DNA of 64,000 nt from an uncultured Sunxiuqinia sp. (GCA_965372405.1 CBDVCE010000013.1:3777-67776), one strand, 5' to 3'; counted from the first letter of the stretch, positions 7,494-22,673 are shown. The notes: a model not told the origin generated them from the sequence alone. Program-made: numbers and translations.

Positions 7494-8507
7494 TTATTCA
7501 GTAACCAATTCTTTTAACGCTTCAATCCAAAGAGGATGGTCATTTAGGCTTTCCACCAACTGTAGTTTTTCACCTCCATTTTCCTTAAATAGCTCTTTAT
7601 ATTCCAAGCCAATCTCAACGGTTGTTTCAAGACAATCAGCAACAAATGAAGGAGCAACAAGCAACAGCCTCTTCACTCCTGACTTGGCCTTCTGAACAAG
7701 CATTTCATCAGCAAAAGGATTCATCCAGTTTTTAGTCAGGCGCGATTGAAAAGCTACAGAATATTCATTTTTCTCCAAGCCAACTGCTTCTGCCAATAGA
7801 CGAGTTGTAGCATAACAAGTAGCCTTATAACAATACTGTCCATGAGAAGGCATAGACTCTTCGCATGCACACTGGGTTGAATCTATTTCAGGATGTGTTT
7901 TATCAATTTGGCGATTGGGTAATCCGTGATAAGAGAAAATAATATGATCGTAAGATTTTGGATTATAAGACTGAATACGTTCAGCAAAAGCCGCTATAAA
8001 TTTTGGATGGTCATAAAATTGGCTGACTAATCGAAACTCAGGAACAACATACCAATTGGCAATTTCCTTTGATACATATTCGGCAATACTCCCCGTGGTT
8101 GAAGACGCATATTGAGGAAAAACTGGAATCAAAATCAGTTTACCAAATCGTTTTTCTTTGATTTCATTGAGCACTGTTTTAATTGAAGGATTCCCATAGC
8201 GCATGGCAGTGAAAACCTCAAAATCATCGCCCAATGCATTTTGTAGTCCAATTTTATTTTTCTCGGCATTTACTATCAATGGAGAACCATTTTCTGTCCA
8301 TAGTTGCTGATATAGTTTAGTCGATTTAGGGGCACGAAAAGGGACGATAATCAGATTAACCAAAATCTTTTGCAACAACCAAGGAAGATCAATCACACGA
8401 CGATCATTCAGAAACTGAAAAAGATACCTCCGAACAGCCCCGACTTTGGGTTCATCAGGGGTGCCAATGTTTGCCAGGATTACTGCCGTTTTTTTTGAGT
8501 CGATCAT
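7494..8507 (-). CDS. hemH: Ferrochelatase (start taken at ATG 8507; alternative TTG 8531)
   Basis: NIGTP, RYGNP, FSYHGLP, FQSR, FVADCLET motifs. Confidence 0.95.
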   Translation of the reverse strand: MIDSKKTAVILANIGTPDEPKVGAVRRYLFQFLNDRRVIDLPWLLQKILVNLIIVPFRAPKSTKLYQQLWTENGSPLIVNAEKNKIGLQNALGDDFEVFTAMRYGNPSIKTVLNEIKEKRFGKLILIPVFPQYASSTTGSIAEYVSKEIANWYVVPEFRLVSQFYDHPKFIAAFAERIQSYNPKSYDHIIFSYHGLPNRQIDKTHPEIDSTQCACEESMPSHGQYCYKATCYATTRLLAEAVGLEKNEYSVAFQSRLTKNWMNPFADEMLVQKAKSGVKRLLLVAPSFVADCLETTVEIGLEYKELFKENGGEKLQLVESLNDHPLWIEALKELVTE

Positions 8508-8565
8508 AGAATACTGGTTTCTGGATACCAAATATAAATTTATGAAATTAATTCTTTCTACTCCC

Positions 8566-9477
8566 CTAAGTTGCCCGCTTTCCCATGTTTACCCAATCAA
8601 TATCTTTTTTGAGTAGCTTCAATGTTTCGTGTTCCCTTGATCCTTCTTCAGCTTTGTATTGATATTCCCATGAAACAAGAGGTGGCATACTTAAAAAGAT
8701 GGACTCCGTTCTTCCTCCAGAATCAAGACCAAATTTGGTACCACGGTCGTACAGCAAATTAAACTCGACATATCGTCCTCTTCTTAATCGTTGCCAGTCC
8801 AATTCTTCTTTTGAAAATGACTTATTACGATTTTGATTCATCAATTCAATATATATTCTGGGATAAGCATCTGCTAAGGCTTGTGTGAAATTAAAAAGCT
8901 TTTTAAAATCTAGTTTGTTCTGTGCCAATTGATGATCAAAAAAGACACCTCCAATACCTCTGGTTTCCTGTCGATGAGGGATATAGAAATAATCATCAGC
9001 CCATTTTTTAAAGCCCTGATATGAATCGGATTCGTATTCTGTACAAAGTTCTTCCAATTGCTGATGAAACCAGGATGCCTCGTCAACATTGACATAGTGC
9101 GGAGTCAAGTCAATTCCCCCTCCAAACCAAGCCATTCCTGAATCCAATTGAAAATAACGAACATTCATATGGGTAATGGGAACATGTGGATTTTTGGGAT
9201 GAATGATTGATGAGATTCCTGTGGCAAAATAATTATCCCCAGCTTCAATTTTTAGAGACTTTCTCATACTGTCACTAACCGGACCACTTACTTTTGAAAA
9301 ATTGATTGCCGCTTTCTCCAATGCATCACCATCAGTTAGAACCATGGTTGCGCCTTCACCCAATTCTTTTTTCCAGGAATCTGTAATAAATCGGGCACCA
9401 CCATCTGCTTCTTCCAAAGTGGAGCACATTTTTTGTTGAAGTGTCCGATAAGTGTCCGCTACATGATTGTTTCGCAT
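8566..9477 (-). CDS. hemF: Oxygen-dependent coproporphyrinogen III oxidase (alternative TTG start 9486)
   Basis: HMNVRYF, WFGGGIDLTP, RRGRYVEFNLLYDRGTKFGL motifs. Confidence 0.95.
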   Translation of the reverse strand: MRNNHVADTYRTLQQKMCSTLEEADGGARFITDSWKKELGEGATMVLTDGDALEKAAINFSKVSGPVSDSMRKSLKIEAGDNYFATGISSIIHPKNPHVPITHMNVRYFQLDSGMAWFGGGIDLTPHYVNVDEASWFHQQLEELCTEYESDSYQGFKKWADDYFYIPHRQETRGIGGVFFDHQLAQNKLDFKKLFNFTQALADAYPRIYIELMNQNRNKSFSKEELDWQRLRRGRYVEFNLLYDRGTKFGLDSGGRTESIFLSMPPLVSWEYQYKAEEGSREHETLKLLKKDIDWVNMGKRAT

Positions 9478-9482
9478 AAATA

Positions 9483-10832
9483 TCAATTAATGCTGTCTGC
9501 CAGCTGTTTGCCTTGTTTAATCCGGTCAGCCATTCCAATTCCATCCCTTACATTTCCTGCAATTATCAAACCTGGAAAATCAGTTTCAATTTTGCTAATG
9601 GCAGCCAGCTTCTCTTCTGACTCGAAGCCATACTGCGGAATGGCGTGCTGATACCGATTGATTTCAAACAAATCAGGAGTCCACTTTGTTAAGCCCATCA
9701 TCGATTTTATTTCCTTCTCAACAACAGCCTTAATCTTATCATCTGGCAAATCAGCCAATTCAGACTTTCGCACTCCACCAACAAAGGTTGACAATAATGC
9801 TCCTCCTTCAGGTGCACGATTCTTAAAACAAGATGACATAAATAATACGCCTAGTACATCTCTATTTTCAATAAAAGGAACCAAGCCTCCAAAAGCTTTC
9901 AGGTTTACACCCTCCCACTTTTTAAAACCAATGGCAACTTGTGCAACACGGGCATAGTTCATCGCTTGTATTTTCTGCAATACATCAGATTCAATAAAAG
10001 GAAAGCTTGTAGCTAACTGGTGTCCTCCAATCGTTGAGATCACTCGATCAAACAACTGTGTTTCACCATCTGCATGAATTATTTTATAAGCTGAATCATT
10101 TTGCTCAACGCGAATATCTTTGGTATTTAAATGAATATTCTCTGCTCCTATTGCATCCACCAAGGCTTTGATTAAACTTCCAAGTCCTCCATCAAAAGAG
10201 AAAATCTCTCTCGTTGCCTTTTTGTCTCGTTCACTTTTAGGTTCTTTTCCTTTCTTAATTGCTCCACCAATAAAGCTGCCGTAGTTTTGTTCCAGATTAT
10301 ACAACTTTGGTAAAGCAAAGCGCGGAATCAGTTTTGAAGGATCACCAGCGTAGATTCCCAGAACAAACGGATCGACAGCATAATTGAGGAAGCTTTTGCC
10401 CATTCGGCGATTAACCAACTCAGTAAGCGTTTCATTGGGATTAGTTCCCTTTTTCCGAAAAGGCTCTCCCAACAAACGTAATTTATCTACAAATGAGAAC
10501 AAAGGTGTAGTGACTCCTCTCCATAATCCGGAAGGAATTGCTTCCCATTTTCCGGCTTTCCAAATCCAGCGGTATTTTGCATTTGGATCAGCAACTTCTA
10601 AATTCAACGAATTACCTAAATCTTCAATTAATTCTTTTACTTCCGGCTGCCCAAGTACACCTGAGTTTGGTCCTCTTTCGTACAAGAATCCATCTTTCTG
10701 TACCGATTCAATAACTCCTCCTGCCCGGTCAGACTTTTCAAAAAGCTGCACCTCCAGTCCTTTCTTTTTCAAATAAAAAGCAGTCGTTAGTCCAGTTAAT
10801 CCGGCTCCTATGATGGCAATTTTTGGTTTCAT
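9483..10832 (-). CDS. hemY: FAD-dependent protoporphyrinogen oxidase (HemY type; often annotated HemG)
   Basis: IAIIGAGLTGL dinucleotide motif, ERGPNS, GIYAGDP, AIPQY. Start at MKPKI (ATG 10832), just after the hemN stop. Confidence 0.92.
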   Translation of the reverse strand: MKPKIAIIGAGLTGLTTAFYLKKKGLEVQLFEKSDRAGGVIESVQKDGFLYERGPNSGVLGQPEVKELIEDLGNSLNLEVADPNAKYRWIWKAGKWEAIPSGLWRGVTTPLFSFVDKLRLLGEPFRKKGTNPNETLTELVNRRMGKSFLNYAVDPFVLGIYAGDPSKLIPRFALPKLYNLEQNYGSFIGGAIKKGKEPKSERDKKATREIFSFDGGLGSLIKALVDAIGAENIHLNTKDIRVEQNDSAYKIIHADGETQLFDRVISTIGGHQLATSFPFIESDVLQKIQAMNYARVAQVAIGFKKWEGVNLKAFGGLVPFIENRDVLGVLFMSSCFKNRAPEGGALLSTFVGGVRKSELADLPDDKIKAVVEKEIKSMMGLTKWTPDLFEINRYQHAIPQYGFESEEKLAAISKIETDFPGLIIAGNVRDGIGMADRIKQGKQLADSIN

Positions 10833-10833
10833 A

Positions 10834-12210
10834 TTAGACTGACTTAGAAAATTTACGCCCTCCTTCATTCACTCGAACATCGAATACAGAAGCCATGTTT
10901 CGAAGGAAAAAACGACCTGTTTCTGTAATAATAATCTCTTCATCAGAATAGCTCAATAAATCATTTGTAACAAATCCATCCAGCTTAGATTCTGAAAAAT
11001 CCAGTTTTTTCTTTATTTCGGAAGAAGTAATGCCAAAATGTGCTTCGAGCTGTTTCCAATTCAAATATTGGTTACACATGATTTCATTGATGATATGACG
11101 TGTAATCTTATCCGTTTCAGTCATCTCATACCCTTTTACAATCTGAATCTGCCCCTGCTCAATGCTCGCCAAATAATCTTTTACCGTTCTTGCATTTTGT
11201 GCATAAACGTTTTCCAACTGGCTAATTCCCGTCACACCAAAAGCATAAACCTGCCCTGTCGTTTCTCTCGTACAATATCCTTGAAAATTTCGATGAAGAC
11301 TTTTGTTTTGCAGAGCCACTGCCATATCATCATTAGGTTTGGCATAATGATCTAAGCCAATGGGTATATACCCTGAAGAAGTCATCTTTGCCCAAGCATG
11401 CTCAAACATTTCCACTTTCGCTTCAGGTTCAGGCAAACCGTACTTTTCAAGTTGTTGTTGTGCTTTTTTCACCCAAGGAACATGCGCATAAGAAAAGGTT
11501 ACCAACCGATCGGCATCAATTTTGATTGCCCGATCCATTGTTTCAGCAAATGATGCAGGAGTCTGGTATGGCAACCCATAAATAAAGTCAAGATTAACCG
11601 ACACACCTGGATAAGATTTAATCATCGAAGAAAGCTCCTCAATCGAAATGGCTGGTATTTGTCGATGGACTGCATTTAAAACCTTCTCCTGAAAATCCTG
11701 AACCCCCATACTAATCCGGTTAAAACCAAACGAAACTAGATCAGCAATATACTTTTCATCTAAATGAGCAGGATTGCACTCAATGGCTATTTCGGGCTTT
11801 TCAATAAAGGTAAATTTGGCGTGAATCACTTCCATGATTTCACCAACATAAGCTGAAGGCATGGCATTTGGTGTTCCACCTCCCCAATGAACTTGTGAAA
11901 CTTTTCGATTTTCATCCAAGCTTGGCCTGATCATCAGAATCTCCTTTTTCAGCGCATCAACATATTGACGCATAATATCCTGATCTTTCGTAATGTGCGT
12001 ATTGCACCCACAATACAGGCATAGCTGCGGACAGAAAGGAATATGAATGTAAATTGATATATTTTCCGGTTGCTTTGAATTCGAATCAACAACTGCTTTT
12101 AAATAGTCATCAGTTCCAAAATTATTATCAAAGAAATTAGCAGGAGGATAACTGGTATACCTCGGAACCGGAATGTTATATTTATCTATTAATGAATGTG
12201 GAATTTTCAT
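10834..12210 (-). CDS. hemN: Oxygen-independent coproporphyrinogen III oxidase (radical SAM)
   Basis: PRYTSYP, CPQLCLYCGC (CxxxCxxC), WGGGTP, HRNFQGY: genuine HemN signature. Confidence 0.95.
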   Translation of the reverse strand: MKIPHSLIDKYNIPVPRYTSYPPANFFDNNFGTDDYLKAVVDSNSKQPENISIYIHIPFCPQLCLYCGCNTHITKDQDIMRQYVDALKKEILMIRPSLDENRKVSQVHWGGGTPNAMPSAYVGEIMEVIHAKFTFIEKPEIAIECNPAHLDEKYIADLVSFGFNRISMGVQDFQEKVLNAVHRQIPAISIEELSSMIKSYPGVSVNLDFIYGLPYQTPASFAETMDRAIKIDADRLVTFSYAHVPWVKKAQQQLEKYGLPEPEAKVEMFEHAWAKMTSSGYIPIGLDHYAKPNDDMAVALQNKSLHRNFQGYCTRETTGQVYAFGVTGISQLENVYAQNARTVKDYLASIEQGQIQIVKGYEMTETDKITRHIINEIMCNQYLNWKQLEAHFGITSSEIKKKLDFSESKLDGFVTNDLLSYSDEEIIITETGRFFLRNMASVFDVRVNEGGRKFSKSV

Positions 12211-12219
12211 GTTTTCAAA

Positions 12220-13455
12220 TTATGAATTATTTAATTCGGTACTAGGGTCACCCTCCATATATTTTTCCTTTTTGAAAATAAAAGGAAGTAGCAATAAAAC
12301 CAATACACAAAGCACCATTTCAATTCTGAACAAACCACGATACGCAATTTGATCAGCTAGTTTTCCACTAAAAACAGCTATAAATAAGCTGCTTAAATGA
12401 GTAAGTACAATCTGAATCGTAAAATCTGTTCCTTCACGTCCTTTTCGAACAACTGCCATGCACAAGGTAAAAATAAACACCGATGACATAGCATAAGCCG
12501 ACCACAATAAACAAACCGCCATATAAATTAGGTACAGCGGATGATTTGTATAGGTCAGCATAAAAAAGAATGAAGCAGCAAATAAGTTTACCGTAGCAAA
12601 TAAATACACTGATTTACCAAAACCAATTTTTCGAATAATAAAACCAGCTGGAATGGCAATTAATGCACCACAGGCCGTGCCCCAAATGCCAGATATGAAA
12701 CCAATTTCCCTGATACTATAACCCAAATCAACCAAATAAGGTTTTACCATTGTTAAAACACCAATGATGCCTGAATAAAACACTAGTAGAATCAATATAT
12801 GTTTGATGGTGGATGCTTCACGAAAGAATAGAACAAACTCATAAAAAGTAACCTTTTTGCTAGTCGGTTTAACTTCTTCAATTGGTTTTATCTTATAAAA
12901 CGTAACAGGAATTAAGGCTAATAAAACGAAACCGGCTAAGCCAAACAATAAATAAGTCCAGCCAAAAGTGCCATATATTATTAGTAAGACACCGCTACCG
13001 AACAATGTACCCAAAAAACTACCAGCTGACTGCATGCTATTCCCCAGGCTTCTTTCCTTCTTCCGAAGCGATAGAATGGCAAACGCATCTGTTGCAATAT
13101 CCTGAGTTGCTGAGGCGGTAAAAGCAATCACCATTAATGCGATAATGGTCGAAAAATCAGTTTTTAAATTAAAGAAACCAATACTGACGATGATCATCGC
13201 GTACAGCAATTCAGACAGCAGTATCCACTTGCGATATTGCTTTGGAGTTTTGCAGTTTCGGTCAACAATTGGTGCCCATAGAAACTTGGCAATCCATGGT
13301 AATTTAATCAACTGTAAATAACCAATCGACTCTAACGAGTAACTCTCCATGCGCATGATAACAGGTACCACCGTAGAGAAAAAACTCATGGGAATAGACT
13401 GCGCCAAATACAAGGTTAGCAGCGTAAAGTACTTATCAAATTCCTTCTTAAACAT
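12220..13455 (-). CDS. MFS transporter, AmpG/RhtX/FptX-like
   Basis: LYLAQSIP, LPWIAKFLWAPIVD, SATQDIATDA motifs; about 12 TM segments. Confidence 0.88.
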   Translation of the reverse strand: MFKKEFDKYFTLLTLYLAQSIPMSFFSTVVPVIMRMESYSLESIGYLQLIKLPWIAKFLWAPIVDRNCKTPKQYRKWILLSELLYAMIIVSIGFFNLKTDFSTIIALMVIAFTASATQDIATDAFAILSLRKKERSLGNSMQSAGSFLGTLFGSGVLLIIYGTFGWTYLLFGLAGFVLLALIPVTFYKIKPIEEVKPTSKKVTFYEFVLFFREASTIKHILILLVFYSGIIGVLTMVKPYLVDLGYSIREIGFISGIWGTACGALIAIPAGFIIRKIGFGKSVYLFATVNLFAASFFFMLTYTNHPLYLIYMAVCLLWSAYAMSSVFIFTLCMAVVRKGREGTDFTIQIVLTHLSSLFIAVFSGKLADQIAYRGLFRIEMVLCVLVLLLLPFIFKKEKYMEGDPSTELNNS

Positions 13456-13464
13456 CTACGAATT

Positions 13465-15564
13465 CTAAAATCTAACTTTTGCAGTAACTCCTACCCTCGA
13501 AGGTTTTCCAATCTGAGCATACGAATTTCCAAGCGCAGTAAAGTAAAAAGAATTATAATCAGCATCAAATAAGTTTTTACACCAAATGCTTAAAGAAATA
13601 TCATTTTTCTGGAATGAGACCCTTCCGCTTACTAAACCATAGAAATCTTGCCAGGCATTATTTGATTCGTGCCAGTATGTTTTACCAAACCCCTGATACT
13701 GAAGCAGAATAGTCATTCTATCAACAAGTTCACTATTAAATTCAAAAGCCTGTTTTACACCCAAATTCAATGTAAAGCGAGGTGCATATGGCAAATAATT
13801 ACCAGCATAATCAGTAGAATCGTTTCTCATGTATTCAACAAATTTTGCTTTGTTAAAACCAAACATTCCCCATGCTTCAAATTTATTATCCGGGCTGTAG
13901 CGCATTTCCAACTCAAAACCCATACTTTCAGATTTACCTGCATTTTTCAGCATAGATCCTCGGCCACTTGGTGCTGGTTGATAAACTTGCTGCTTACGCC
14001 AATCCATATAATAAGCTCCAATTCCTGCTTTTATATTATTTTTTGGGCAACGAAATTTCCAACCAAATTCATAATTATAACTTTCTTCCGGTTCATAAGA
14101 ACGATCTTCATCCCGTTCAAAAGTTGAGTTAAACCCACCAGCATTGTAACCTTTTGAGAAAGTTGCATAGTGGCTAATATTCTCATTAATATTGTACTTC
14201 ACAGATATTTTTGGAAGAAATACCACATTATCCAGTTCAAGTTCGGCATCACCTACATGACTAGTATTTCCTACAACCTCCTTATCATGCTGATAGTCCA
14301 ATGTTGCTTTTTCATAATCCCCCCTCAAGCCAGCAATAATATTCACTTTTCCAATATTCAATACCGATTGATGATAAAATGCAACTCCAGAAGTCGTATT
14401 GTCATAGCCTTTGGTATAGTTATAAGAACCTGGCAAGCGATATTTACTAATTCCATCTTCGCCGTACTCCACAAATACTTCTTTATCTAAAGACTGTCTG
14501 AAAACAAATCCTCCAAAGAGCCATTCATATATTTTCCCTTTTTCAGAACTCACTGTTAGTTCCTGAGCAAACATGTTTTGCTTTTGATTCTGGTTCACCA
14601 TAAATAAGCTTGCTGGTGTAAAATCCTGATCAATTTTTTGAAAATCATCTAACAACTGAAAACTGGTTGCTGAACTCAAATAAACAGATCCGAAATCGGC
14701 ATTCATAGATAGCCCTGCTGAAAATAGCTCACGTTCGTATCCACTTGCAAAATCATAACTTACATCACCTGCACTTTGTGTGTCAATATCATACAAAGCG
14801 TAAGGATAACCTGCCTGATCACTGTTTTCATATTGAAGTGTAAGACGCGTATTAAATGAAGAGCAAACATCATAGTTCAACTTCAATCGTCCAGAATAGC
14901 TATCAAGTTTATCTGCTGACTCGCCTAAAAATTCATTGGTAAAATAACCATCATTATGAACCTTCCCAAAATTCACAATCATTCCCAGTTTATCATTAAT
15001 TGGCTGATTATGTGAAATCTGTGTTTCAAGCTGATTAAAGCTCCCATAATTCACTTGCACACTGGTTGACCTATCTGGTTTTGGTTGTTGAGTCGTAATA
15101 TTAATTAAACCTGCCAGAGTATTTCTCCCGAAAAGCGTCCCCTGTGGACCACGTAGCACATCAATGCTTTCAATATCCTGAAAATTAAAATTGAATGCCG
15201 CCTTCAAAAAATAAGGAATATTGTCCACGTAAAGTCCTACCGAAGGTGAATTAATACGTGTACCAACTCCGCGTATGTAAACAGGAGAAGTTAGTTTTGA
15301 GCCATAATCTGGCATAAAGAAGTTGGGAACAAAACCTGACAAATCGGTTAGGTTTTCAATCTTATTATCAACGATAATATAAGCAGGCAACTTTGAAGCA
15401 GCTGCTGGCAACTGAAAAACATCGCTATTGTATTTGGTTGAACTTATCGTTATTTCTCCGATATCTATTGATTTATAAACCGTTGTATCGGCTGGCTCTT
15501 CTTCTGCAAAAACGACTAATGCAAAAACGAGGATACACGCAGTCAGTAATATTTTATTATACAT
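13465..15564 (-). CDS. TonB-dependent outer-membrane receptor (FyuA/siderophore-receptor-like)
   Basis: Signal peptide, plug motif LRGPQGTLFGRNTLAGLINI, C-terminal ...GVTAKVRF; 699 aa. Confidence 0.93.
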   Translation of the reverse strand: MYNKILLTACILVFALVVFAEEEPADTTVYKSIDIGEITISSTKYNSDVFQLPAAASKLPAYIIVDNKIENLTDLSGFVPNFFMPDYGSKLTSPVYIRGVGTRINSPSVGLYVDNIPYFLKAAFNFNFQDIESIDVLRGPQGTLFGRNTLAGLINITTQQPKPDRSTSVQVNYGSFNQLETQISHNQPINDKLGMIVNFGKVHNDGYFTNEFLGESADKLDSYSGRLKLNYDVCSSFNTRLTLQYENSDQAGYPYALYDIDTQSAGDVSYDFASGYERELFSAGLSMNADFGSVYLSSATSFQLLDDFQKIDQDFTPASLFMVNQNQKQNMFAQELTVSSEKGKIYEWLFGGFVFRQSLDKEVFVEYGEDGISKYRLPGSYNYTKGYDNTTSGVAFYHQSVLNIGKVNIIAGLRGDYEKATLDYQHDKEVVGNTSHVGDAELELDNVVFLPKISVKYNINENISHYATFSKGYNAGGFNSTFERDEDRSYEPEESYNYEFGWKFRCPKNNIKAGIGAYYMDWRKQQVYQPAPSGRGSMLKNAGKSESMGFELEMRYSPDNKFEAWGMFGFNKAKFVEYMRNDSTDYAGNYLPYAPRFTLNLGVKQAFEFNSELVDRMTILLQYQGFGKTYWHESNNAWQDFYGLVSGRVSFQKNDISLSIWCKNLFDADYNSFYFTALGNSYAQIGKPSRVGVTAKVRF

Positions 15565-15579
15565 CTAATTATTTTTTAT

Positions 15580-15607
15580 CCGAAAATCAGTAAGCTTGAA
15601 TTTTCGG
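15580..15607 (-). promoter_or_regulatory. Stem-loop 15 nt upstream of the TonB receptor start
   Basis: CCGAAAAT (15580-15587) / ATTTTCGG (15600-15607) inverted repeat; no U-tract on the coding strand. Confidence 0.4.
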
Positions 15608-15641
15608 GAATAGACAAAAGGTTGGTTAATACATTCAGATA

Positions 15642-15989
15642 TTAGATGCAAAAAGGTGGGGGGCGATTAACAACCTGCCCTTTCTGCTCATAAAGATGAG
15701 CAATTTTAATCCGGTCTCCCGGGCCAAGAATTATTTGATTTTGTGTAAAATGGAAGGTCGAATTTTGATGAATATCAGAATCTGTTTTCTGATCATCTTC
15801 ACCATAATAATATGAACTTTCATCAATTTGATCATCAGCATCAACAAAAACTTCTTTCTTCCCAAAAAAGAATTCTTCAAGAAGTTCTTTCTTTTCAACT
15901 GACTTATTTGAAACAAAAAAGTAAGTCAGATAAAAAAAGAAAAAAACCAGATATGGAATATGTGTGCTAAAAATCCCGAAAGAAAACAT
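15642..15989 (-). CDS. Small leader-type protein: N-terminal hydrophobic segment, acidic middle, C-terminal RPPP
   Basis: 115-aa ATG ORF directly upstream of the TonB receptor and directly downstream of a -7 element; ends NRPPPFCI. Confidence 0.7.
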   Translation of the reverse strand: MFSFGIFSTHIPYLVFFFFYLTYFFVSNKSVEKKELLEEFFFGKKEVFVDADDQIDESSYYYGEDDQKTDSDIHQNSTFHFTQNQIILGPGDRIKIAHLYEQKGQVVNRPPPFCI

Positions 15990-16013: not shown

Positions 16014-16021
16014 CAAAAGTA
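16014..16021 (-). promoter_or_regulatory. sigma70 -7 element TACTTTTG for the leader/TBDR/hem operon
   Basis: TAnnTTTG about 25 nt upstream of ATG 15989. Confidence 0.55.
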
Positions 16022-16184
16022 AAAAAAAATAGAGAATTCTATCTCTGAATTGATATTTATCAATGTAATGCTTAACATTTTTATTCTTGTTATGCTTTTC
16101 ATTTTTTGAAACAAGTTGAGTTCAATTGAAAACAATACAATTAGAATATTTTCATATTGGTCATATGATCTCTATCTTTACGAA

Positions 16185-17579: not shown

Positions 17580-17903
17580 ATGAAAATTGCAATAACAGCG
17601 AGTGAGCAGAACATTAACTCAAAACTTGACAGCCGCTTTGGACGTTGTTCTTATTTTGCCATATACGATACAGAAAGTAATGATATTGAATTTGCTTTAA
17701 ATCCAAACAAAGAGGCAGCCGAAGGTGCAGGACCTGCATCGGTACAATTAATTGCTTCGAAAGGGGTAAAAAAGATTATATCTGGAAATTTCGGAGGTAA
17801 AGTCAAAAATATTCTTGAAGATCTGGGAATACAAATGGTCGTTTTTAATGACGCTGAGAAAACGATAAATGAAATTCTTAGTCATCTTAAATTCAAACAA
17901 TAA
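17580..17903 (+). CDS. NifB/NifX family Fe-Mo cofactor-binding domain protein
   Basis: MKIAIT...RFGRCSYF...GAG...GNFG motifs. Confidence 0.9.
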   Translation: MKIAITASEQNINSKLDSRFGRCSYFAIYDTESNDIEFALNPNKEAAEGAGPASVQLIASKGVKKIISGNFGGKVKNILEDLGIQMVVFNDAEKTINEILSHLKFKQ

Positions 17904-17921
17904 TAAAGAAAGGAGGTGTTT

Positions 17922-18140
17922 ATGCCTGGATTCAACAGAAAAGGACCACAAGGTGAAGGTTCAATGACAGGTCGTGGCATGGGGCGTTGTAACTCTGAAA
18001 ATAAAAATCAACTTTCAGATAAAACACAAAACATGTCTAAAGATACAGATGAAAAACAAACCAACTCAACCACAGGTAGAGGCCTAGGATTAAGAAGAGG
18101 CAAAGGAGCAGGATTTGGTTTAAGAAAAAACGGTTGTTAA
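17922..18140 (+). CDS. DUF5320-like small Gly/Arg-rich protein
   Basis: MPGFNRKGPQGEGSMTGRGMGRC N-terminus; preceded by AGGAGGT at 17911-17917. Confidence 0.85.
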   Translation: MPGFNRKGPQGEGSMTGRGMGRCNSENKNQLSDKTQNMSKDTDEKQTNSTTGRGLGLRRGKGAGFGLRKNGC

Positions 18141-18150
18141 CAGATGAATT

Positions 18151-18186
18151 CCCTGACAACAAAATATTTTTCTTGAGTTGTCAGGG
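18151..18186 (+). terminator. Intra-operon stem-loop (terminator or RNA-stability hairpin)
   Basis: CCCTGACAAC (18151-18160) / GTTGTCAGGG (18177-18186), followed by GTTT. Confidence 0.45.
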
Positions 18187-18208
18187 GTTTACTTTAGAAC
18201 TTATAAGT

Positions 18209-18544
18209 ATGACAAAAATTGCTATTCCTACAGAAAATGAACTTCTTTGTTCTCATTTCGGTCATTGTAAAGAATTTTCAATTATTGAAACTGATGGTCA
18301 AAAAATAATCAAAGAAGAAAAAATTGCAGCTCCCCCTCATGAACCCGGACTTTTACCAAAATGGTTAGCTGAGCGCAATGTAAGCAACGTAATTGCAGGT
18401 AGTATTGGACAAAGAGCTGTTGCTCTTTTCAATCAACAAAATATTCAGGTAGATGTTGGAGCTGAAATTAAAGCTCCAAAACAATTGGTGGAAGATTGGC
18501 TAAAAGGAGCATTATCTACAGGCGCGAATGCATGTGATCATTAA
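18209..18544 (+). CDS. NifB/NifX family protein (HFGHC type)
   Basis: MTKIAIP...HFGHC...PPHEPG...NACDH; start taken at ATG 18209. Confidence 0.9.
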   Translation: MTKIAIPTENELLCSHFGHCKEFSIIETDGQKIIKEEKIAAPPHEPGLLPKWLAERNVSNVIAGSIGQRAVALFNQQNIQVDVGAEIKAPKQLVEDWLKGALSTGANACDH

Positions 18545-18556
18545 AATTTCTATGTT

Positions 18557-19471
18557 TTGAATTACAGATGTTTTTTCTGCTTATCAAGAGCTTTTGAGAA
18601 GTTAATTATCAAGGAGAAGCTTTCAAACGAGCAAGCCAATCTGTTTACGAAGGAAATTATTCAGCTATATTCTGAAAAGGGTGATAGTTATCTCACGCCT
18701 CAGTTTGCTGGAGCAATCTATGCAAACTTAAAAAGGTATACAGGGAATAATGATCCTTTTAGTCAGGTTAAAAGGCAAAGCAACGATTTGGTTTTAGGCA
18801 TGTATGATAACTTAAAAGAAAAAGTTGAAAAAGCCAACAACCCATTTGACATGGCTCTTCGTCTGGCAATTGCTGGAAATATTATTGATTTTGCAGTAAA
18901 TGACAAATATAATTTACAAGAAACAATAAATCATGTATTAAATACAGATTTCAGTATTAATCATAGCGAAGACCTTCAAAACGAATTAAAACAAGCTGAT
19001 ACAGTTTTATATCTCGGAGATAACAATGGTGAAATTGTTTTAGACAAGCTTTTAATCGAAACGATCAATCATCCAAACCTAATTTTTGCAGTAAGAGGAG
19101 AACCTGTGATAAATGACATTACAATAAAAGATGCTGAATATGTAGGGATGAAAAAAATTGTTCCAATTGTCTCAAATGGTACGAACCTACCCTCCACAGT
19201 ATTAAGTGAATGTTCCGATGAATTCAAGGAAATTTTCAATAAAGCAGACCTAGTCATTTCAAAAGGACAAGGCAATCTGGAAGGATTACAGAATGAATCT
19301 AATCACAATATCTTTTTCCTGTTAATGGTAAAATGTGATGTAATTGCAGAAAGTATAAAGGTTAAAAAAGGAGATTTTGTAGTAAAAATGAATAAGTCGA
19401 CCCATGAAAATAGCAATAGCAAGTGGCAAAGGAGGAACTGGAAAGACTCTCGTTTCCACAAATCTTTTTAA
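18557..19471 (+). CDS. DUF89/ARMT1-like metal-dependent phosphatase
   Basis: N-terminal CFFC, AGNIIDF, DNNGE, ISKGQGNLE, KC motifs. Confidence 0.88.
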   Translation: MNYRCFFCLSRAFEKLIIKEKLSNEQANLFTKEIIQLYSEKGDSYLTPQFAGAIYANLKRYTGNNDPFSQVKRQSNDLVLGMYDNLKEKVEKANNPFDMALRLAIAGNIIDFAVNDKYNLQETINHVLNTDFSINHSEDLQNELKQADTVLYLGDNNGEIVLDKLLIETINHPNLIFAVRGEPVINDITIKDAEYVGMKKIVPIVSNGTNLPSTVLSECSDEFKEIFNKADLVISKGQGNLEGLQNESNHNIFFLLMVKCDVIAESIKVKKGDFVVKMNKSTHENSNSKWQRRNWKDSRFHKSF

Positions 19472-20255
19472 TACAATACGAAACATTGGAGAACCAGTAA
19501 CACTCGTAGATTGTGATGCAGAAGAACCAAATGCACAGCAATTCATAAAAGGAAACTTGATTGATGAGCAATTCGTAATTCAAAAAGTTCCAATTATTGA
19601 TTTGAAGAATTGTACTTTCTGTGGTAAATGCCAGAAATTCTGCAATTATAATGCAATTATTGTTATACCTGAAATTAAACGAATTCAGGTAATTGAAGAA
19701 CTATGTCATGATTGTGGTGCTTGCTCTTTTGCGTGCAAATTTTCTGCAATTACCGAAAAGGACAAGACAATAGGTACGATTAGTATATTTGAATTGGATA
19801 AGTATTCCGTACTATTAGAAAGCAGATTGAATATTGGGGTTTATTCATCAGTACCATTAATTAAATCGGCTATTAGTGCTGTAGATAACGAAACTATTGC
19901 TCTATTTGATGCACCACCCGGGACTTCGTGCCCATTTATTGCATCGGTGGAGGATGCTGATTATGTAGTACTGGTTACAGAACCTACTCCATTTGGATTG
20001 AATGATTTAAAACTCTCGGTAAATACTCTCAAAGAACTAAGAAAATCTTTTGGTGTAGTAATAAATCGCGTTGGAATCGGCAATAATGATGTTTTTAACT
20101 ACTTAAAAGAAAATCAAATACCTCTTTTAGCTGAAATTCCTTTTGATCGTGAGATAGCGAGGAACTATTCTGAAGGAAAGTTAATTACCCAAGCACTCCC
20201 TCAATATCAGGAAGTATTTGAACAATTGTATTTTACCATTCAAAACATTAACTAA
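19404..20255 (+). CDS. MinD-superfamily P-loop ATPase with inserted 2x[4Fe-4S] ferredoxin
   Basis: SGKGGTGKT, DCDAEEPN, CTFCGKCQKFC / CHDCGACSFAC, DAPPGTSCP, EPTPFG. Confidence 0.92.
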   Translation: MKIAIASGKGGTGKTLVSTNLFNTIRNIGEPVTLVDCDAEEPNAQQFIKGNLIDEQFVIQKVPIIDLKNCTFCGKCQKFCNYNAIIVIPEIKRIQVIEELCHDCGACSFACKFSAITEKDKTIGTISIFELDKYSVLLESRLNIGVYSSVPLIKSAISAVDNETIALFDAPPGTSCPFIASVEDADYVVLVTEPTPFGLNDLKLSVNTLKELRKSFGVVINRVGIGNNDVFNYLKENQIPLLAEIPFDREIARNYSEGKLITQALPQYQEVFEQLYFTIQNIN

Positions 20256-20256
20256 A

Positions 20257-21141
20257 GTGATAGAAATAGCCATATTAAGCGGGAAAGGTGGTACTGGAAA
20301 AACAAGTCTAAGTGCAGCTTTTACATCACTTGAATCGAATATTGTTGTAGCTGATTGTGATGTAGATGCAGCAAATTTACATTTAGTATTAAACCCTCAG
20401 AATTATCGGGAAGAAGTATACATTTCAGGACAAAAAGCGATAATTGATTACAATAAATGTACTAATTGTGCACTTTGTCTAGAATATTGTCGGTTTGGAG
20501 CAATCCAAATAAAGAATCAAAAAATAGAGATTTCGGAAACATCCTGCGATGGCTGTCACCTGTGTGCAAGAGTTTGTCCTGCAGATGCAATTACAATGGA
20601 AAATCATGATAAAAGCCGCTGGTATGAGGCTACGATTGAAAATGGAAGAATGGTTCATGCCCACCTTGCTCCTGGTGAAGATAATTCAGGCAAGTTGGTC
20701 AATATTGTAAGAGATCAAGCAAGAGAAATTGCATTTAATATTGATTCAGAGATCATTCTTATTGATGGTCCTCCGGGAATTGGATGTCCGGTTATTTCGT
20801 CTCTAACAGGAACGGACAAAGTACTATTAGTCACAGAACCAAGCCAATCTGGGCTTCATGATTTAAAAAGAATTGTTGAACTAGTTAATCAGTTCAAAAT
20901 AAAAGCCTTTGTTGTAATAAATAAATTCGATCTAAACATTCAAATAAGTGAAGAGATTGAAAATTGGAGCAAGCAGAAAGACATTCCTGTTGCAGGAAAA
21001 TTACCTTTTGACCCTATTGTTGTTGATGCAATGATTAATTGTAAAACAATAACTCAATGGTTACCTGATTCCCCATTCAGCAAAGAAATAATTGAAATAT
21101 GGAATAAGTTAAAAACAAATGAACACAAAAAACCTATTTGA
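20257..21141 (+). CDS. MinD-superfamily P-loop ATPase with inserted ferredoxin, second paralog
   Basis: SGKGGTGKT, DCDVDAANL, CTNCALCLEYC / CDGCHLCARVC, DGPPGIGCP; likely GTG start at 20257. Confidence 0.92.
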   Translation: MIEIAILSGKGGTGKTSLSAAFTSLESNIVVADCDVDAANLHLVLNPQNYREEVYISGQKAIIDYNKCTNCALCLEYCRFGAIQIKNQKIEISETSCDGCHLCARVCPADAITMENHDKSRWYEATIENGRMVHAHLAPGEDNSGKLVNIVRDQAREIAFNIDSEIILIDGPPGIGCPVISSLTGTDKVLLVTEPSQSGLHDLKRIVELVNQFKIKAFVVINKFDLNIQISEEIENWSKQKDIPVAGKLPFDPIVVDAMINCKTITQWLPDSPFSKEIIEIWNKLKTNEHKKPI

Positions 21142-21955
21142 GAAGATTGACATGCCTGGTGTTAAAAACACCATTGTTGTAGCATCAGGTAAAGGAGGGG
21201 TTGGAAAATCAACAGTATCTGCAAATCTAGCAATGGCACTAGCAAGAGAGGGCTATAAAACAGCACTTTTTGATGCTGATTTATTTGGCCCATCTATTCC
21301 AATATTATTTGGAGTTCAGGGTGAGAAACCAAAAGTTAGTAATCCAAACGGTCAAGAACGAATTTCTCCAATTGAAAAATATGGAGTTAAAATTATGAGC
21401 ATTGCTTTTTTCATGATTAACAAAAAATCGCTCATATGGAGAGGCCCGGCAGCATCTGCAGGATTAACTCAATTATTATCAGCTACAGAATGGGGTGAGA
21501 TTGATTATTTAATTATTGACTTTCCTCCTGGAACTAGTGATGTTCAGTTAACAATAACTCAAAAACTATATCTTACCGGATCAATCCTTGTTACTACACC
21601 ACAAGATATTGCAGTTGCAGATGCACTAAAAGCAGCTGATATGTTTCAAACCCCAAAAATTCAGGTACCAATATTGGGTGTTGTTGAAAACATGTCCTAT
21701 TTCACTCCTGATAAACATCCAGATGAAAAATATTTTCTTTTTGGTAAAGGAGGAGGTGAAAAATTATCAAGCCAATTAAATGTGCCATTATTAGGCCAAA
21801 TTCCTCTGGTAAGTGATGTTTGTGAGCTTGGCGACAATGGGAAATCCATATACTTATCGAAGAACCAATTAATCGCAAATGAATTTAACAATCTTGTTTT
21901 AAATCTAATTGAAACTCTTAGCTCCTCTCCAAAAGAACAATTGAATAGAACTTAA
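21119..21955 (+). CDS. mrp: Mrp/NBP35 Fe-S cluster carrier ATPase
   Basis: SGKGGVGKS, DADLFGPS, WRGP, DFPPGTSD, VVENMS motifs. Confidence 0.9.
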   Translation: MNTKNLFEKIDMPGVKNTIVVASGKGGVGKSTVSANLAMALAREGYKTALFDADLFGPSIPILFGVQGEKPKVSNPNGQERISPIEKYGVKIMSIAFFMINKKSLIWRGPAASAGLTQLLSATEWGEIDYLIIDFPPGTSDVQLTITQKLYLTGSILVTTPQDIAVADALKAADMFQTPKIQVPILGVVENMSYFTPDKHPDEKYFLFGKGGGEKLSSQLNVPLLGQIPLVSDVCELGDNGKSIYLSKNQLIANEFNNLVLNLIETLSSSPKEQLNRT

Positions 21956-22019
21956 AATTCCAAAGACAATAAGTTCCGGTCAATTCGAGTATCGTTTAAA
22001 CTAATTAAATAGAAACAAC

Positions 22020-22673
22020 GTGAACTTTTCAAAACCTAAGGTAAATATCATTATTGACGGAATCATGTGCCTCTGTTTTATTTTCCTAATATTCAATGGC
22101 TTACTAGCAAGATATATCCTCTTACCTGGATTTAAAAGAAATCTAAAATACGGAGCTGATTATGACCTATACTTTTTAGGAATGGATAGACATCAATGGG
22201 GGACGATTCATTTTATTGTCAGTTTAGTACTAATTCTGGGTTTACTTTTCCACTTCATTCTCCATTGGAAATCGATAAAAAGCAAAATGAATCGCTTGAT
22301 ATCCAAAAGTACATTCACGAAAATAACCTACATAGTTTTACTAATCTTAATCTTTTCCTGCGTTTTTGGGACATTTATGATTAAACCAGACGTCGTAAGA
22401 AGGGAGCATCTGGAATTAAACAGAAATAATTTAAATGATAGAATTAAGCCAAACAACCAAGAAACACAAGACTTGCATAGTGAAATTGAAATAATGGGAT
22501 CGATGTCTCTTGAACAAGCTGCAGAAAAATATGATGTTTCTATAGAAAAAATAGTAGATAAACTGGGAGTTAATCAAAATGAATCAACTGAAAATATTGG
22601 AAGACTTCGGAAGAAATATGGCTTCACAATGAATGAATTAAAGGAATTGATTCAAAAAAACAGACACAAATAA
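22020..22673 (+). CDS. DUF4405-like membrane protein (cytochrome b-like His pair)
   Basis: GMDRHQWGTIH...HFILHW motif; three TM segments and a soluble C-terminus. Confidence 0.75.
   Translation: MNFSKPKVNIIIDGIMCLCFIFLIFNGLLARYILLPGFKRNLKYGADYDLYFLGMDRHQWGTIHFIVSLVLILGLLFHFILHWKSIKSKMNRLISKSTFTKITYIVLLILIFSCVFGTFMIKPDVVRREHLELNRNNLNDRIKPNNQETQDLHSEIEIMGSMSLEQAAEKYDVSIEKIVDKLGVNQNESTENIGRLRKKYGFTMNELKELIQKNRHK

Follow-up and report, generated by a model that had tools for sequence, protein, structure and literature searches.

A TonB receptor–permease pair conserved within late haem operons of Bacteroidales, and the leader family with an RPPP motif that precedes it

Six open reading frames (ORFs), all on the minus strand, occupy positions 7494–15564 of a 64-kb stretch of sediment-metagenome DNA assigned to an uncultured Sunxiuqinia sp. 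(the whole stretch of 64,000 nucleotides is called the window in what follows). Read from the 5′ end, they encode a TonB-dependent outer-membrane receptor, a permease of the major facilitator superfamily (MFS) and the haem enzymes HemN, HemY, HemF and HemH (Table 1). An earlier note made from the sequence of this DNA had described such a tightly packed series on one strand, and all six ORFs were recovered at these positions. The gaps between them, from the receptor through HemH, measure 9, 9, −35, −4 and 34 nt; the third becomes +1 if hemY starts at its second ATG (10832), which may be the true start. With the curated NCBIfam cut-offs taken as thresholds for family membership, HemN, HemY, HemF and HemH each score above the equivalog cut-off and belong to the protoporphyrin-dependent late haem pathway. 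A tblastn search with the E. coli HemA, HemL, HemB, HemC, HemD and HemE proteins (E ≤ 1e-3) gave no hit in the 64-kb window and Pfam scans of the neighbouring genes revealed no haem genes, in agreement with the earlier note, which had remarked on the missing early genes. The region 7494–15989 (minus strand) most likely forms a single transcription unit consisting of promoter, leader ORF, receptor, MFS, HemN, HemY, HemF and HemH. Among the matches listed, Sunxiuqinia supplies the nearest receptor homologues (a metagenome-assembled genome (MAG) at 78% identity, strain A32 at 69%), and those of other Prolixibacteraceae (Draconibacterium, Mariniphaga, Maribellus) are about 50–55% identical; the host of the window is most likely a Sunxiuqinia-like Prolixibacteraceae bacterium.

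Table 1. Positions of the operon genes and of the elements preceding them in the window
Feature	Position	Strand	Basis or remark
Promoter-like Bacteroidota −7 box TACTTTTG	16014–16021	−	Read from sequence; 24 nt upstream of the leader ATG
Leader ORF, 115 codons, putative RAPP-class translation-arrest leader	15642–15989	−	Conserved ends, RPPP motif
Leader–receptor spacer, 77 nt	15565–15641	−	Hairpin 15607–15600 / 15587–15580
TonB-dependent outer-membrane receptor, FyuA-like, 699 aa	13465–15564	−	Pfam plug and barrel domains
MFS permease, AmpG/RhtX-FptX branch, 411 aa	12220–13455	−	About 12 hydrophobic segments; NCBIfam and structure matches
HemN	10834–12210	−	TIGR00538 equivalog, 488.6 bits (cut-off 324.95)
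HemY-type protoporphyrinogen IX oxidase (FAD)	9483–10868	−	TIGR00562, 278.5 bits (cut-off 97.85)
HemF	8566–9486	−	NF003727, 363 bits (cut-off 297)
HemH, ferrochelatase	7494–8531	−	TIGR00109, 253.7 bits (cut-off 124.6)

A scan with a receptor alignment against one genome per species returned 496 relatives, the best 80 of which were retrieved with 10-kb flanks. The window and loci L001–L083 made up a set of 84 sources, compared by local tblastn and all-against-all clustering; the genome loci span 43–78% receptor identity to the window. Essentially all of the best 80 of the 496 related loci share the order receptor-MFS-hemN-hemY(-hemF)(-hemH) despite left neighbours of at least 10 different kinds, so that the six genes proposed earlier to form an operon are a real conserved unit. 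Within the 84 sources the receptor is found in 83, the MFS in 80, HemN in 74, HemY in 71 and HemH in 52. Most of the shortfalls are contig ends, the remainder being hemH-lacking clusters and two variants, one without the MFS and hemN (L073) and one without hemN (L074). The MFS adjoins the receptor in 80 of the 84 sources, and the exceptions L053, L057 and L075 stop at a contig edge. The proposed tie of the pair to the late haem steps is likewise borne out: all loci of sufficient length show the linkage, and hemN-hemY remain linked to the pair even where hemH has left the cluster. Eleven loci that extend 1.9 kb or more past hemY show this, lacking hemH and retaining receptor-MFS-hemN-hemY; in Lentimicrobium-type loci hemH is convergent. 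The gene hemF belongs to the late operon in the window, in L001, L004 and L138–L140 (the Sunxiuqinia-like lineage) and in a few others, and elsewhere closes the early operon; L007 and L026, two members of the main group of the family outside the Sunxiuqinia-like lineage, also carry it among the late genes of the operon. Carriers of the cluster are Prolixibacteraceae, Lentimicrobiaceae, other Bacteroidales and a few MAGs labelled Chlorobiota or Omnitrophica, labels that may be binning errors. Metatranscriptome contigs 95–99% identical to D. orientale span the receptor, MFS, hemN and hemY, three of them bridging the MFS-hemN junction; since DNA carry-over is possible in such contigs, they lend weak support to co-transcription of the pair with hemN. 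Judged from gene order, the arrangement is far beyond chance, and we regard the architecture and the functional coupling of the importer pair with the late haem operon as very probable.

Additional genes occur at the downstream end of some of these operons. A HemD-like (HEM4) gene convergent to hemY is present in 'Chlorobiota'-labelled MAGs and in one Bacteroidales MAG (L070:11176-12009, L071:7643-8422, L082:14293-15060). A conserved membrane protein of about 106 aa (...NLPFGY.RGGFRKLSFWWF..HAPVPL...), for which Pfam gave no match, is encoded by the last gene of haem operons, following hemH in late and hemF in early operons (L002:17086-17406, L089:12030-12368, about 21 genome loci, and L107, L119, L127, L136 and L137); it is not in the operon of the window.

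The receptor carries a signal peptide and a TonB-box-like DIGEITISS, and its PF07715 (50 bits, cut-off 23.9) and PF00593 (123 bits, cut-off 27) domains place it in the TonB-dependent receptor superfamily. When compared with solved structures, FyuA (4epa) is the best match over nearly the full length (E=1.5e-33). The siderophore-receptor subfamily model TIGR01783 gives 148.6 bits against a cut-off of 223.5, and the haem/haemoglobin receptor models TIGR01785/6 give 38.9 bits against a cut-off of about 317. Divergent orthologues score 161–162 bits on TIGR01783. Receptors of divergent metagenome loci (34–41% identity) were considered as a haem-type family; this was rejected, as they fall into the same clade as the window receptor. 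The permease, presumed to be the inner-membrane partner of the receptor, scores 172.2 bits over the full length of TIGR02718 (RhtX/FptX, cut-off 356) and 144.4 bits on TIGR00901 (AmpG, cut-off 350), its best solved relative being AmpG (8zgz, E=1e-23). The labels 'FyuA-like' and 'AmpG/RhtX-like' given to the two proteins previously are accurate in that 4epa and AmpG are the best solved relatives and RhtX/FptX the best family. Since both proteins lie far under the curated family cut-offs, they form a clade of their own.

Relatives of the window organism possess the early haem genes. In an uncultured Draconibacterium (L021, a 2.0-Mb contig) the pair is directly preceded, on its own strand, by hemA, hemC, hemD, hemB, hemL, hemE and hemF, and all twelve genes form one supercluster with the transporter pair in its middle. 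The early genes of L021 score above the curated cut-offs except hemD, whose best model reaches 117 bits and stays under its cut-off. The type-strain assembly of Mariniphaga anaerophila contains a hemA-C-D-B-L-E-F operon on another contig than the receptor cluster, and a protein search with the L021 HemE found this enzyme to be widespread in Prolixibacteraceae, including, among the matches listed, M. anaerophila and M. sediminis. The flanks of the M. anaerophila early operon (PEMT ... aldehyde dehydrogenase, OsmC, Crp) are the same as those of the late operon in L002, a correspondence that points to an ancestral L021-like supercluster which would have been divided differently among lineages. 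The restriction to late steps is thus a property of the window and not of the family, because the relatives carry the early genes. The premise of 'only the late haem steps' in the earlier note implied precursor dependence; with the early genes at hand in M. anaerophila and L021, this proves to be an effect of the 64-kb window. It had also named a complete de novo pathway elsewhere as a finding that would speak against salvage, and here one half has come true, that concerning the relatives. As these make haem from scratch, we infer that the pair is an import module accessory to the haem regulon and regulated together with it, which adds to de novo synthesis instead of filling in for missing steps.

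The element that connects the two halves of the pathway is the leader ORF, which gave no match in either Pfam or NCBIfam. Its N-terminus (MFSFGIFSTHIPY...) is conserved and hydrophobic and its middle variable. The only charged side chain among residues 1–27 is one histidine, in a segment rich in aromatic and aliphatic residues that lies under the Kyte-Doolittle threshold of 1.6 by this simple measure, which is not a dedicated predictor. The RPPP motif (15654–15665) stands three residues before the stop; with this position, a length of 115 aa (<300) and same-strand genes downstream, the ORF qualifies as a RAPP-class small ORF. In the family the N-terminal consensus MF.FGIF.TH.PY is near-invariant and the middle of about 80 residues is not conserved in sequence, yet total length is held, with a median of 112 aa and a range of 108–122 (101 distinct copies); M1, F2, G5, P12, Y13, R109, P110, P111 and P112 are invariant in the alignment. 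Under a strict rule that counts only ORFs ending in R[P/A/G]PP, a leader is present in 72 of the 80 testable genome loci. The motif reads RPPP in 61 of them, RGPP in 6 and RAPP in 5, and 2–5 residues separate it from the stop; Lentimicrobium-type leaders have RGPP and 'Chlorobiota'-type leaders RAPP or RGPP. All six Arg and all four Pro codons occur in the motif (101 distinct copies), which argues that selection acts on the amino-acid sequence rather than the RNA.

In small ORFs that carry a signal, RAPP and RGPP close to the C-terminus are arrest motifs demonstrated by experiment and resistant to EF-P, and ORFs of this type are statistically enriched upstream of TonB-dependent receptors; RPPP was not among the motifs tested (PMC12992588). 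In the case of CruR from Bordetella, arrest at RAPP keeps the downstream TonB transporter expressed; when the nascent chain senses copper, the arrest is lifted and Rho-dependent termination can follow (PMC9426467). By analogy, the leader described here probably acts as an arrest-type regulator. The peptide would stall the ribosome at RPPP, a haem-pathway signal sensed by the conserved N-terminus would modulate the stall as in CruR, and the stall may set downstream expression via Rho access or the unmasking of a start site. In the closest relative of the window (L004, a Sunxiuqinia sp. MAG, positions 9800–10010) the leader is reduced to ATG-TTT-GTT-TAG (Met-Phe-Val-stop) directly before the receptor gene, and the promoter-like sequence of the window is kept. 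Either the leader was lost naturally in this MAG or the reduction is an artefact of long-read assembly.

An unbiased metagenome scan for the leader, using the N-terminal motif of a nine-sequence alignment, returned 48 loci, of which 43 had readable downstream sequence. Haem-biosynthesis genes, and nothing else, follow the leader in all 43. The leader precedes the receptor(-MFS-hemN-hemY-hemH) in 28 loci and hemA-C-D-B-L-E, on into hemF or hemN-hemY-hemF, in 12; in the other 3 it is followed directly by hemN, the transporter being missing. It also stands in front of hemA in L021 and M. anaerophila. The leader family is exclusive to haem-biosynthesis operons, both of the early hemA type and of the late type. 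As far as can be read from the shared leader, the pair is under the same control class as the first committed step of the pathway. In terms of operon design, the downstream-gene survey suggests that the pair is an optional module between leader and hemN, and the operons without it (L095, L100, L101, L122, L132) indicate that it is dispensable.

Leader copies that head transporter-free hemA-hemC-hemD-hemB-hemL-hemE operons are located at L021:1471-1806, at L089:4289-4633 and in the metagenome loci L090, L093, L101, L102, L107–L109, L113, L114, L127, L132 and L134. Many hemA-linked leader copies share an extra motif, F.FK[RK]K, in the mid-region. Two loci (L101:8987-19313 and L132:3222-13329) contain all-in-one leader-hemA-C-D-B-L-E-hemN-hemY-hemF operons without receptor or MFS.

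We propose that the receptor and the permease would carry one small molecule across the outer and inner membranes, and that this cargo would be a tetrapyrrole (coproporphyrinogen, protoporphyrin(ogen) or haem) that joins the pathway at HemN or later. Tetrapyrroles are well-known substrates of TonB receptors. The hemH-free clusters that keep the pair together with hemN-hemY tie it closer to the porphyrinogen steps than to iron insertion. Whereas the leader also precedes early operons, the pair never occurs in them, and in L021 and L104 it is placed between hemF and hemN, i.e. between two coproporphyrinogen oxidases. In the lineage of the window all enzymes from coproporphyrinogen III onward share an operon with the pair. 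A leader that also controls hemA would most naturally read haem or porphyrin status. A tetrapyrrole cargo, whether precursor or haem, is held here tentatively and with somewhat more doubt than conviction. The account in its entirety, comprising the transcription unit, the accessory import module, the tetrapyrrole cargo and the RPPP-stalling leader, comes close to an even chance of being right without quite reaching it.

Several points weigh against this account. Operons of the form leader-hemN-hemY-hemH, or all-in-one operons, exist without the pair (L095, L100, L122, L101, L132). With complete de novo synthesis in the relatives, salvage is no necessity. The receptor sequence contains no FRAP, NPNL/NP.L or related haem-receptor motif. 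Coproporphyrinogen III is oxygen-labile, its extracellular availability is to our knowledge not established, and neither HemN nor HemF accepts coproporphyrin, its stable oxidation product. The minimum-free-energy fold of 15535–15720, which has an overall z-score of only −1.09, pairs the last codons of the leader (15649–15641) with the receptor start region (15569–15561); as a candidate regulator this pairing was rejected, since it is strong in the window but across 74 loci no better than an internal control. Finally, the closest matches of both transporters (FyuA 4epa, TIGR01783 and TIGR02718 RhtX/FptX) are siderophore importers, and the classical siderophore route with a single permease, known from FptA/FptX and RhtA/RhtX, combines a receptor with an MFS of the RhtX/FptX type. 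The pair might thus import a chelate of iron or another metal, such as a xenosiderophore or a low-affinity Fe-carboxylate, for ferrochelatase and the Fe-S enzyme HemN, import being switched on together with haem synthesis much as CrtA supplies copper to haem-copper oxidases. The presence of hemH in or adjacent to the operon in 52 of the 84 sources fits this explanation, and a cofactor-dedicated metal-chelate TonB transporter behind a RAPP leader provides a precedent (PMC12914433, PMC9426467). On the other hand, both proteins are far under the curated cut-offs of the siderophore families, the hemN-hemY linkage outlasts the absence of hemH, no siderophore-synthesis, ferric-reductase or esterase gene recurs across the 84 loci, and the same leader family heads the hemA operons as well. 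An iron-sufficiency signal would moreover switch the importer on amid plentiful iron, so that import of a chelate works only if the signal is haem need. We consider a chelate cargo a substantial possibility, if distinctly short of probable; the earlier note had offered chelated iron as the alternative to a porphyrin precursor. That there is no functional link at all, an unrelated nutrient importer merely sharing a promoter with the late haem genes, seems very improbable. Operons can be mosaics, and some lineages have otherwise identical operons without the pair; however, the adjacency survives over 43–78% receptor identity, several families and at least 10 kinds of flank, and no close receptor homologue outside a haem cluster was found among the best 80 loci.

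In a narrower form of the tetrapyrrole explanation, the Sunxiuqinia-like lineage of the window would have lost hemA-E and would live as a haem-precursor auxotroph on imported coproporphyrinogen or protoporphyrin. Haem auxotrophy is concentrated in Bacteroidales and frequent in sediments (PMC11139205). The early genes are missing from the 64-kb window, and the leader-profile search met only receptor-linked leader copies of this lineage and none linked to hemA, a weak negative in that only 25 candidates shared words with the query. Since hemF has moved into the late operon, that operon alone would suffice for the conversion of coproporphyrinogen III to haem in the presence or absence of oxygen. 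Its position there is compatible with loss of the early operon in this lineage and does not show it, the more so as L007 and L026, outside the Sunxiuqinia-like lineage, have hemF in the same operon. With the early operon found in all checkable relatives, we judge auxotrophy of the window's lineage to be improbable. To return to import as a supplement, its fullest form, in which sediment Bacteroidales possess a two-membrane importer of haem or its precursors and a tetrapyrrole-reading arrest leader over both halves of the pathway, with import perhaps the sole haem source in the window's lineage, appears unlikely.

The individual parts of this system are known: a TonB receptor, an AmpG/RhtX-branch MFS, a protoporphyrin-dependent late pathway and a RAPP-class leader. 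It resembles FyuA/YbtX, FptA/FptX and RhtA/RhtX in placing a 22-strand TonB receptor beside a 12-helix MFS of the AmpG/RhtX branch. It differs from them in that its proteins are under the family cut-offs (149 vs 223.5 and 172 vs 356 bits), siderophore synthesis or release genes are not found nearby, and the context is haem biosynthesis and not a Fur-type iron locus. The CruR-CrtA(BfrG)-CrpH system of Bordetella pertussis is similar in its R-x-P-P leader ORF followed first by a TonB-dependent transporter (PMC9426467, PMC12914433), and the cargo of CrtA serves one class of cofactor enzymes, in the form of chelated copper for haem-copper oxidases (PMC12914433, PMC9426467). Unlike CruR, the leader of the window is without a Pfam match to DUF2946 and no CXXC occurs in the leader alignment, so that it is not of the CruR type; it has MF.FGIF.TH.PY and RPPP in place of RAPP. 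The genes downstream encode an MFS and haem enzymes where the CruR operon has a PepSY protein, the leader family also heads transporter-free hemA operons, and the receptor is not close to CrtA, no such match being obtained in the PDB at E ≤ 1e-5.

The Hus system (HusA/HusB) of Porphyromonas gingivalis is another case of a Bacteroidota TonB receptor proposed to feed late haem enzymes (PMC12094164, PMC6173696). The proposed task of Hus is to deliver metal-free porphyrins or coproporphyrinogen to a residual HemN-HemG-HemH, its role in precursor uptake being a hypothesis only (PMC12094164, PMC6173696). In contrast to the pair described here, it comprises a haemophore-like lipoprotein and no MFS, is not part of a haem-gene operon and belongs to a true auxotroph. 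With the monitoring substrates SecM, MifM, VemP and ApdA/ApdP, arrest peptides of the RAPP class, the leader shares a variable linker of constant length and a conserved Pro-rich motif near the stop, here a putative arrest motif; its N-terminus may correspond to their hydrophobic or localisation segment, and control of the downstream genes is predicted. These genes serve haem biosynthesis and import, not the Sec/YidC machinery. What appears to be new is the combination: haem prototrophs keep an importer pair as a constant part of their late haem operon, and a leader family with RPPP is specific to haem operons. The literature searched contained no description of an importer pair within a late haem operon, nor of this leader family.

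A trade in haem and its precursors among sediment and gut microbes is suspected, and we know of no precursor-specific import route that has been demonstrated. A well-defined candidate for precursor import that experiments can address is the receptor-MFS clade, for which the scan of one genome per species returned 496 relatives. Carriers belong to the cultured, genetically approachable genera Draconibacterium, Mariniphaga and Maribellus, and experimental tractability is good because several carrier species are in culture. Should the cargo be chelated iron, the pair would be the iron counterpart of the copper transporter dedicated to respiratory oxidases. The leader, if it functions as predicted, would add RPPP to the motifs of RAPP-type arrest and bring this mode of regulation into Bacteroidota and into tetrapyrrole biosynthesis, the first committed step included.

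The location of the TACTTTTG box upstream of the leader ATG makes the leader the first cistron, provided that this box is indeed, as its sequence suggests, the promoter element of the operon. TAnnTTTG-like boxes are found 25–35 nt upstream of the leader ORFs in related loci; inspection of these loci by eye revealed no shared operator motif upstream of the leaders beyond such promoter-like boxes. A scan for sigma-70 promoters and intrinsic terminators was uninformative, with counts under the shuffle means in an organism that uses Bacteroidota-type promoters, and Rfam and tRNA scans of the window gave no match. Upstream of the promoter-like box, at 16031–16050 (minus strand) and about 45–60 nt before the leader ATG, the sequence AGAGATAGAATTCTCTAT contains a perfect 8-nt palindrome, AGAATTCT. 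This might serve as an operator; conservation in other loci was not seen by eye. In the more distant lineages the leader is immediately preceded by a tandem pair of DUF4491 genes (about 100 aa each), apparently in the same operon (L061:2268-2892, and at the same position in L062, L066–L072, L078, L080 and L082).

The neighbours of the operon in the window encode RecQ, an M28 peptidase, a MurU-like nucleotidyltransferase, a YbgC thioesterase, a metallo-beta-lactamase-fold protein and an Fe-S/NifX-like cluster. At 17580–22673 on the plus strand, two NifX/NifB-like FeMo-cofactor-domain proteins, an ARMT1-like protein, a DUF4405 protein, two MinD/ParA-type NTPases with 4Fe-4S ferredoxin inserts and an Mrp/NUBPL iron-transfer NTPase are encoded in one cluster, which looks like anaerobe-type Fe-S or metallocofactor handling unrelated to the haem operon.

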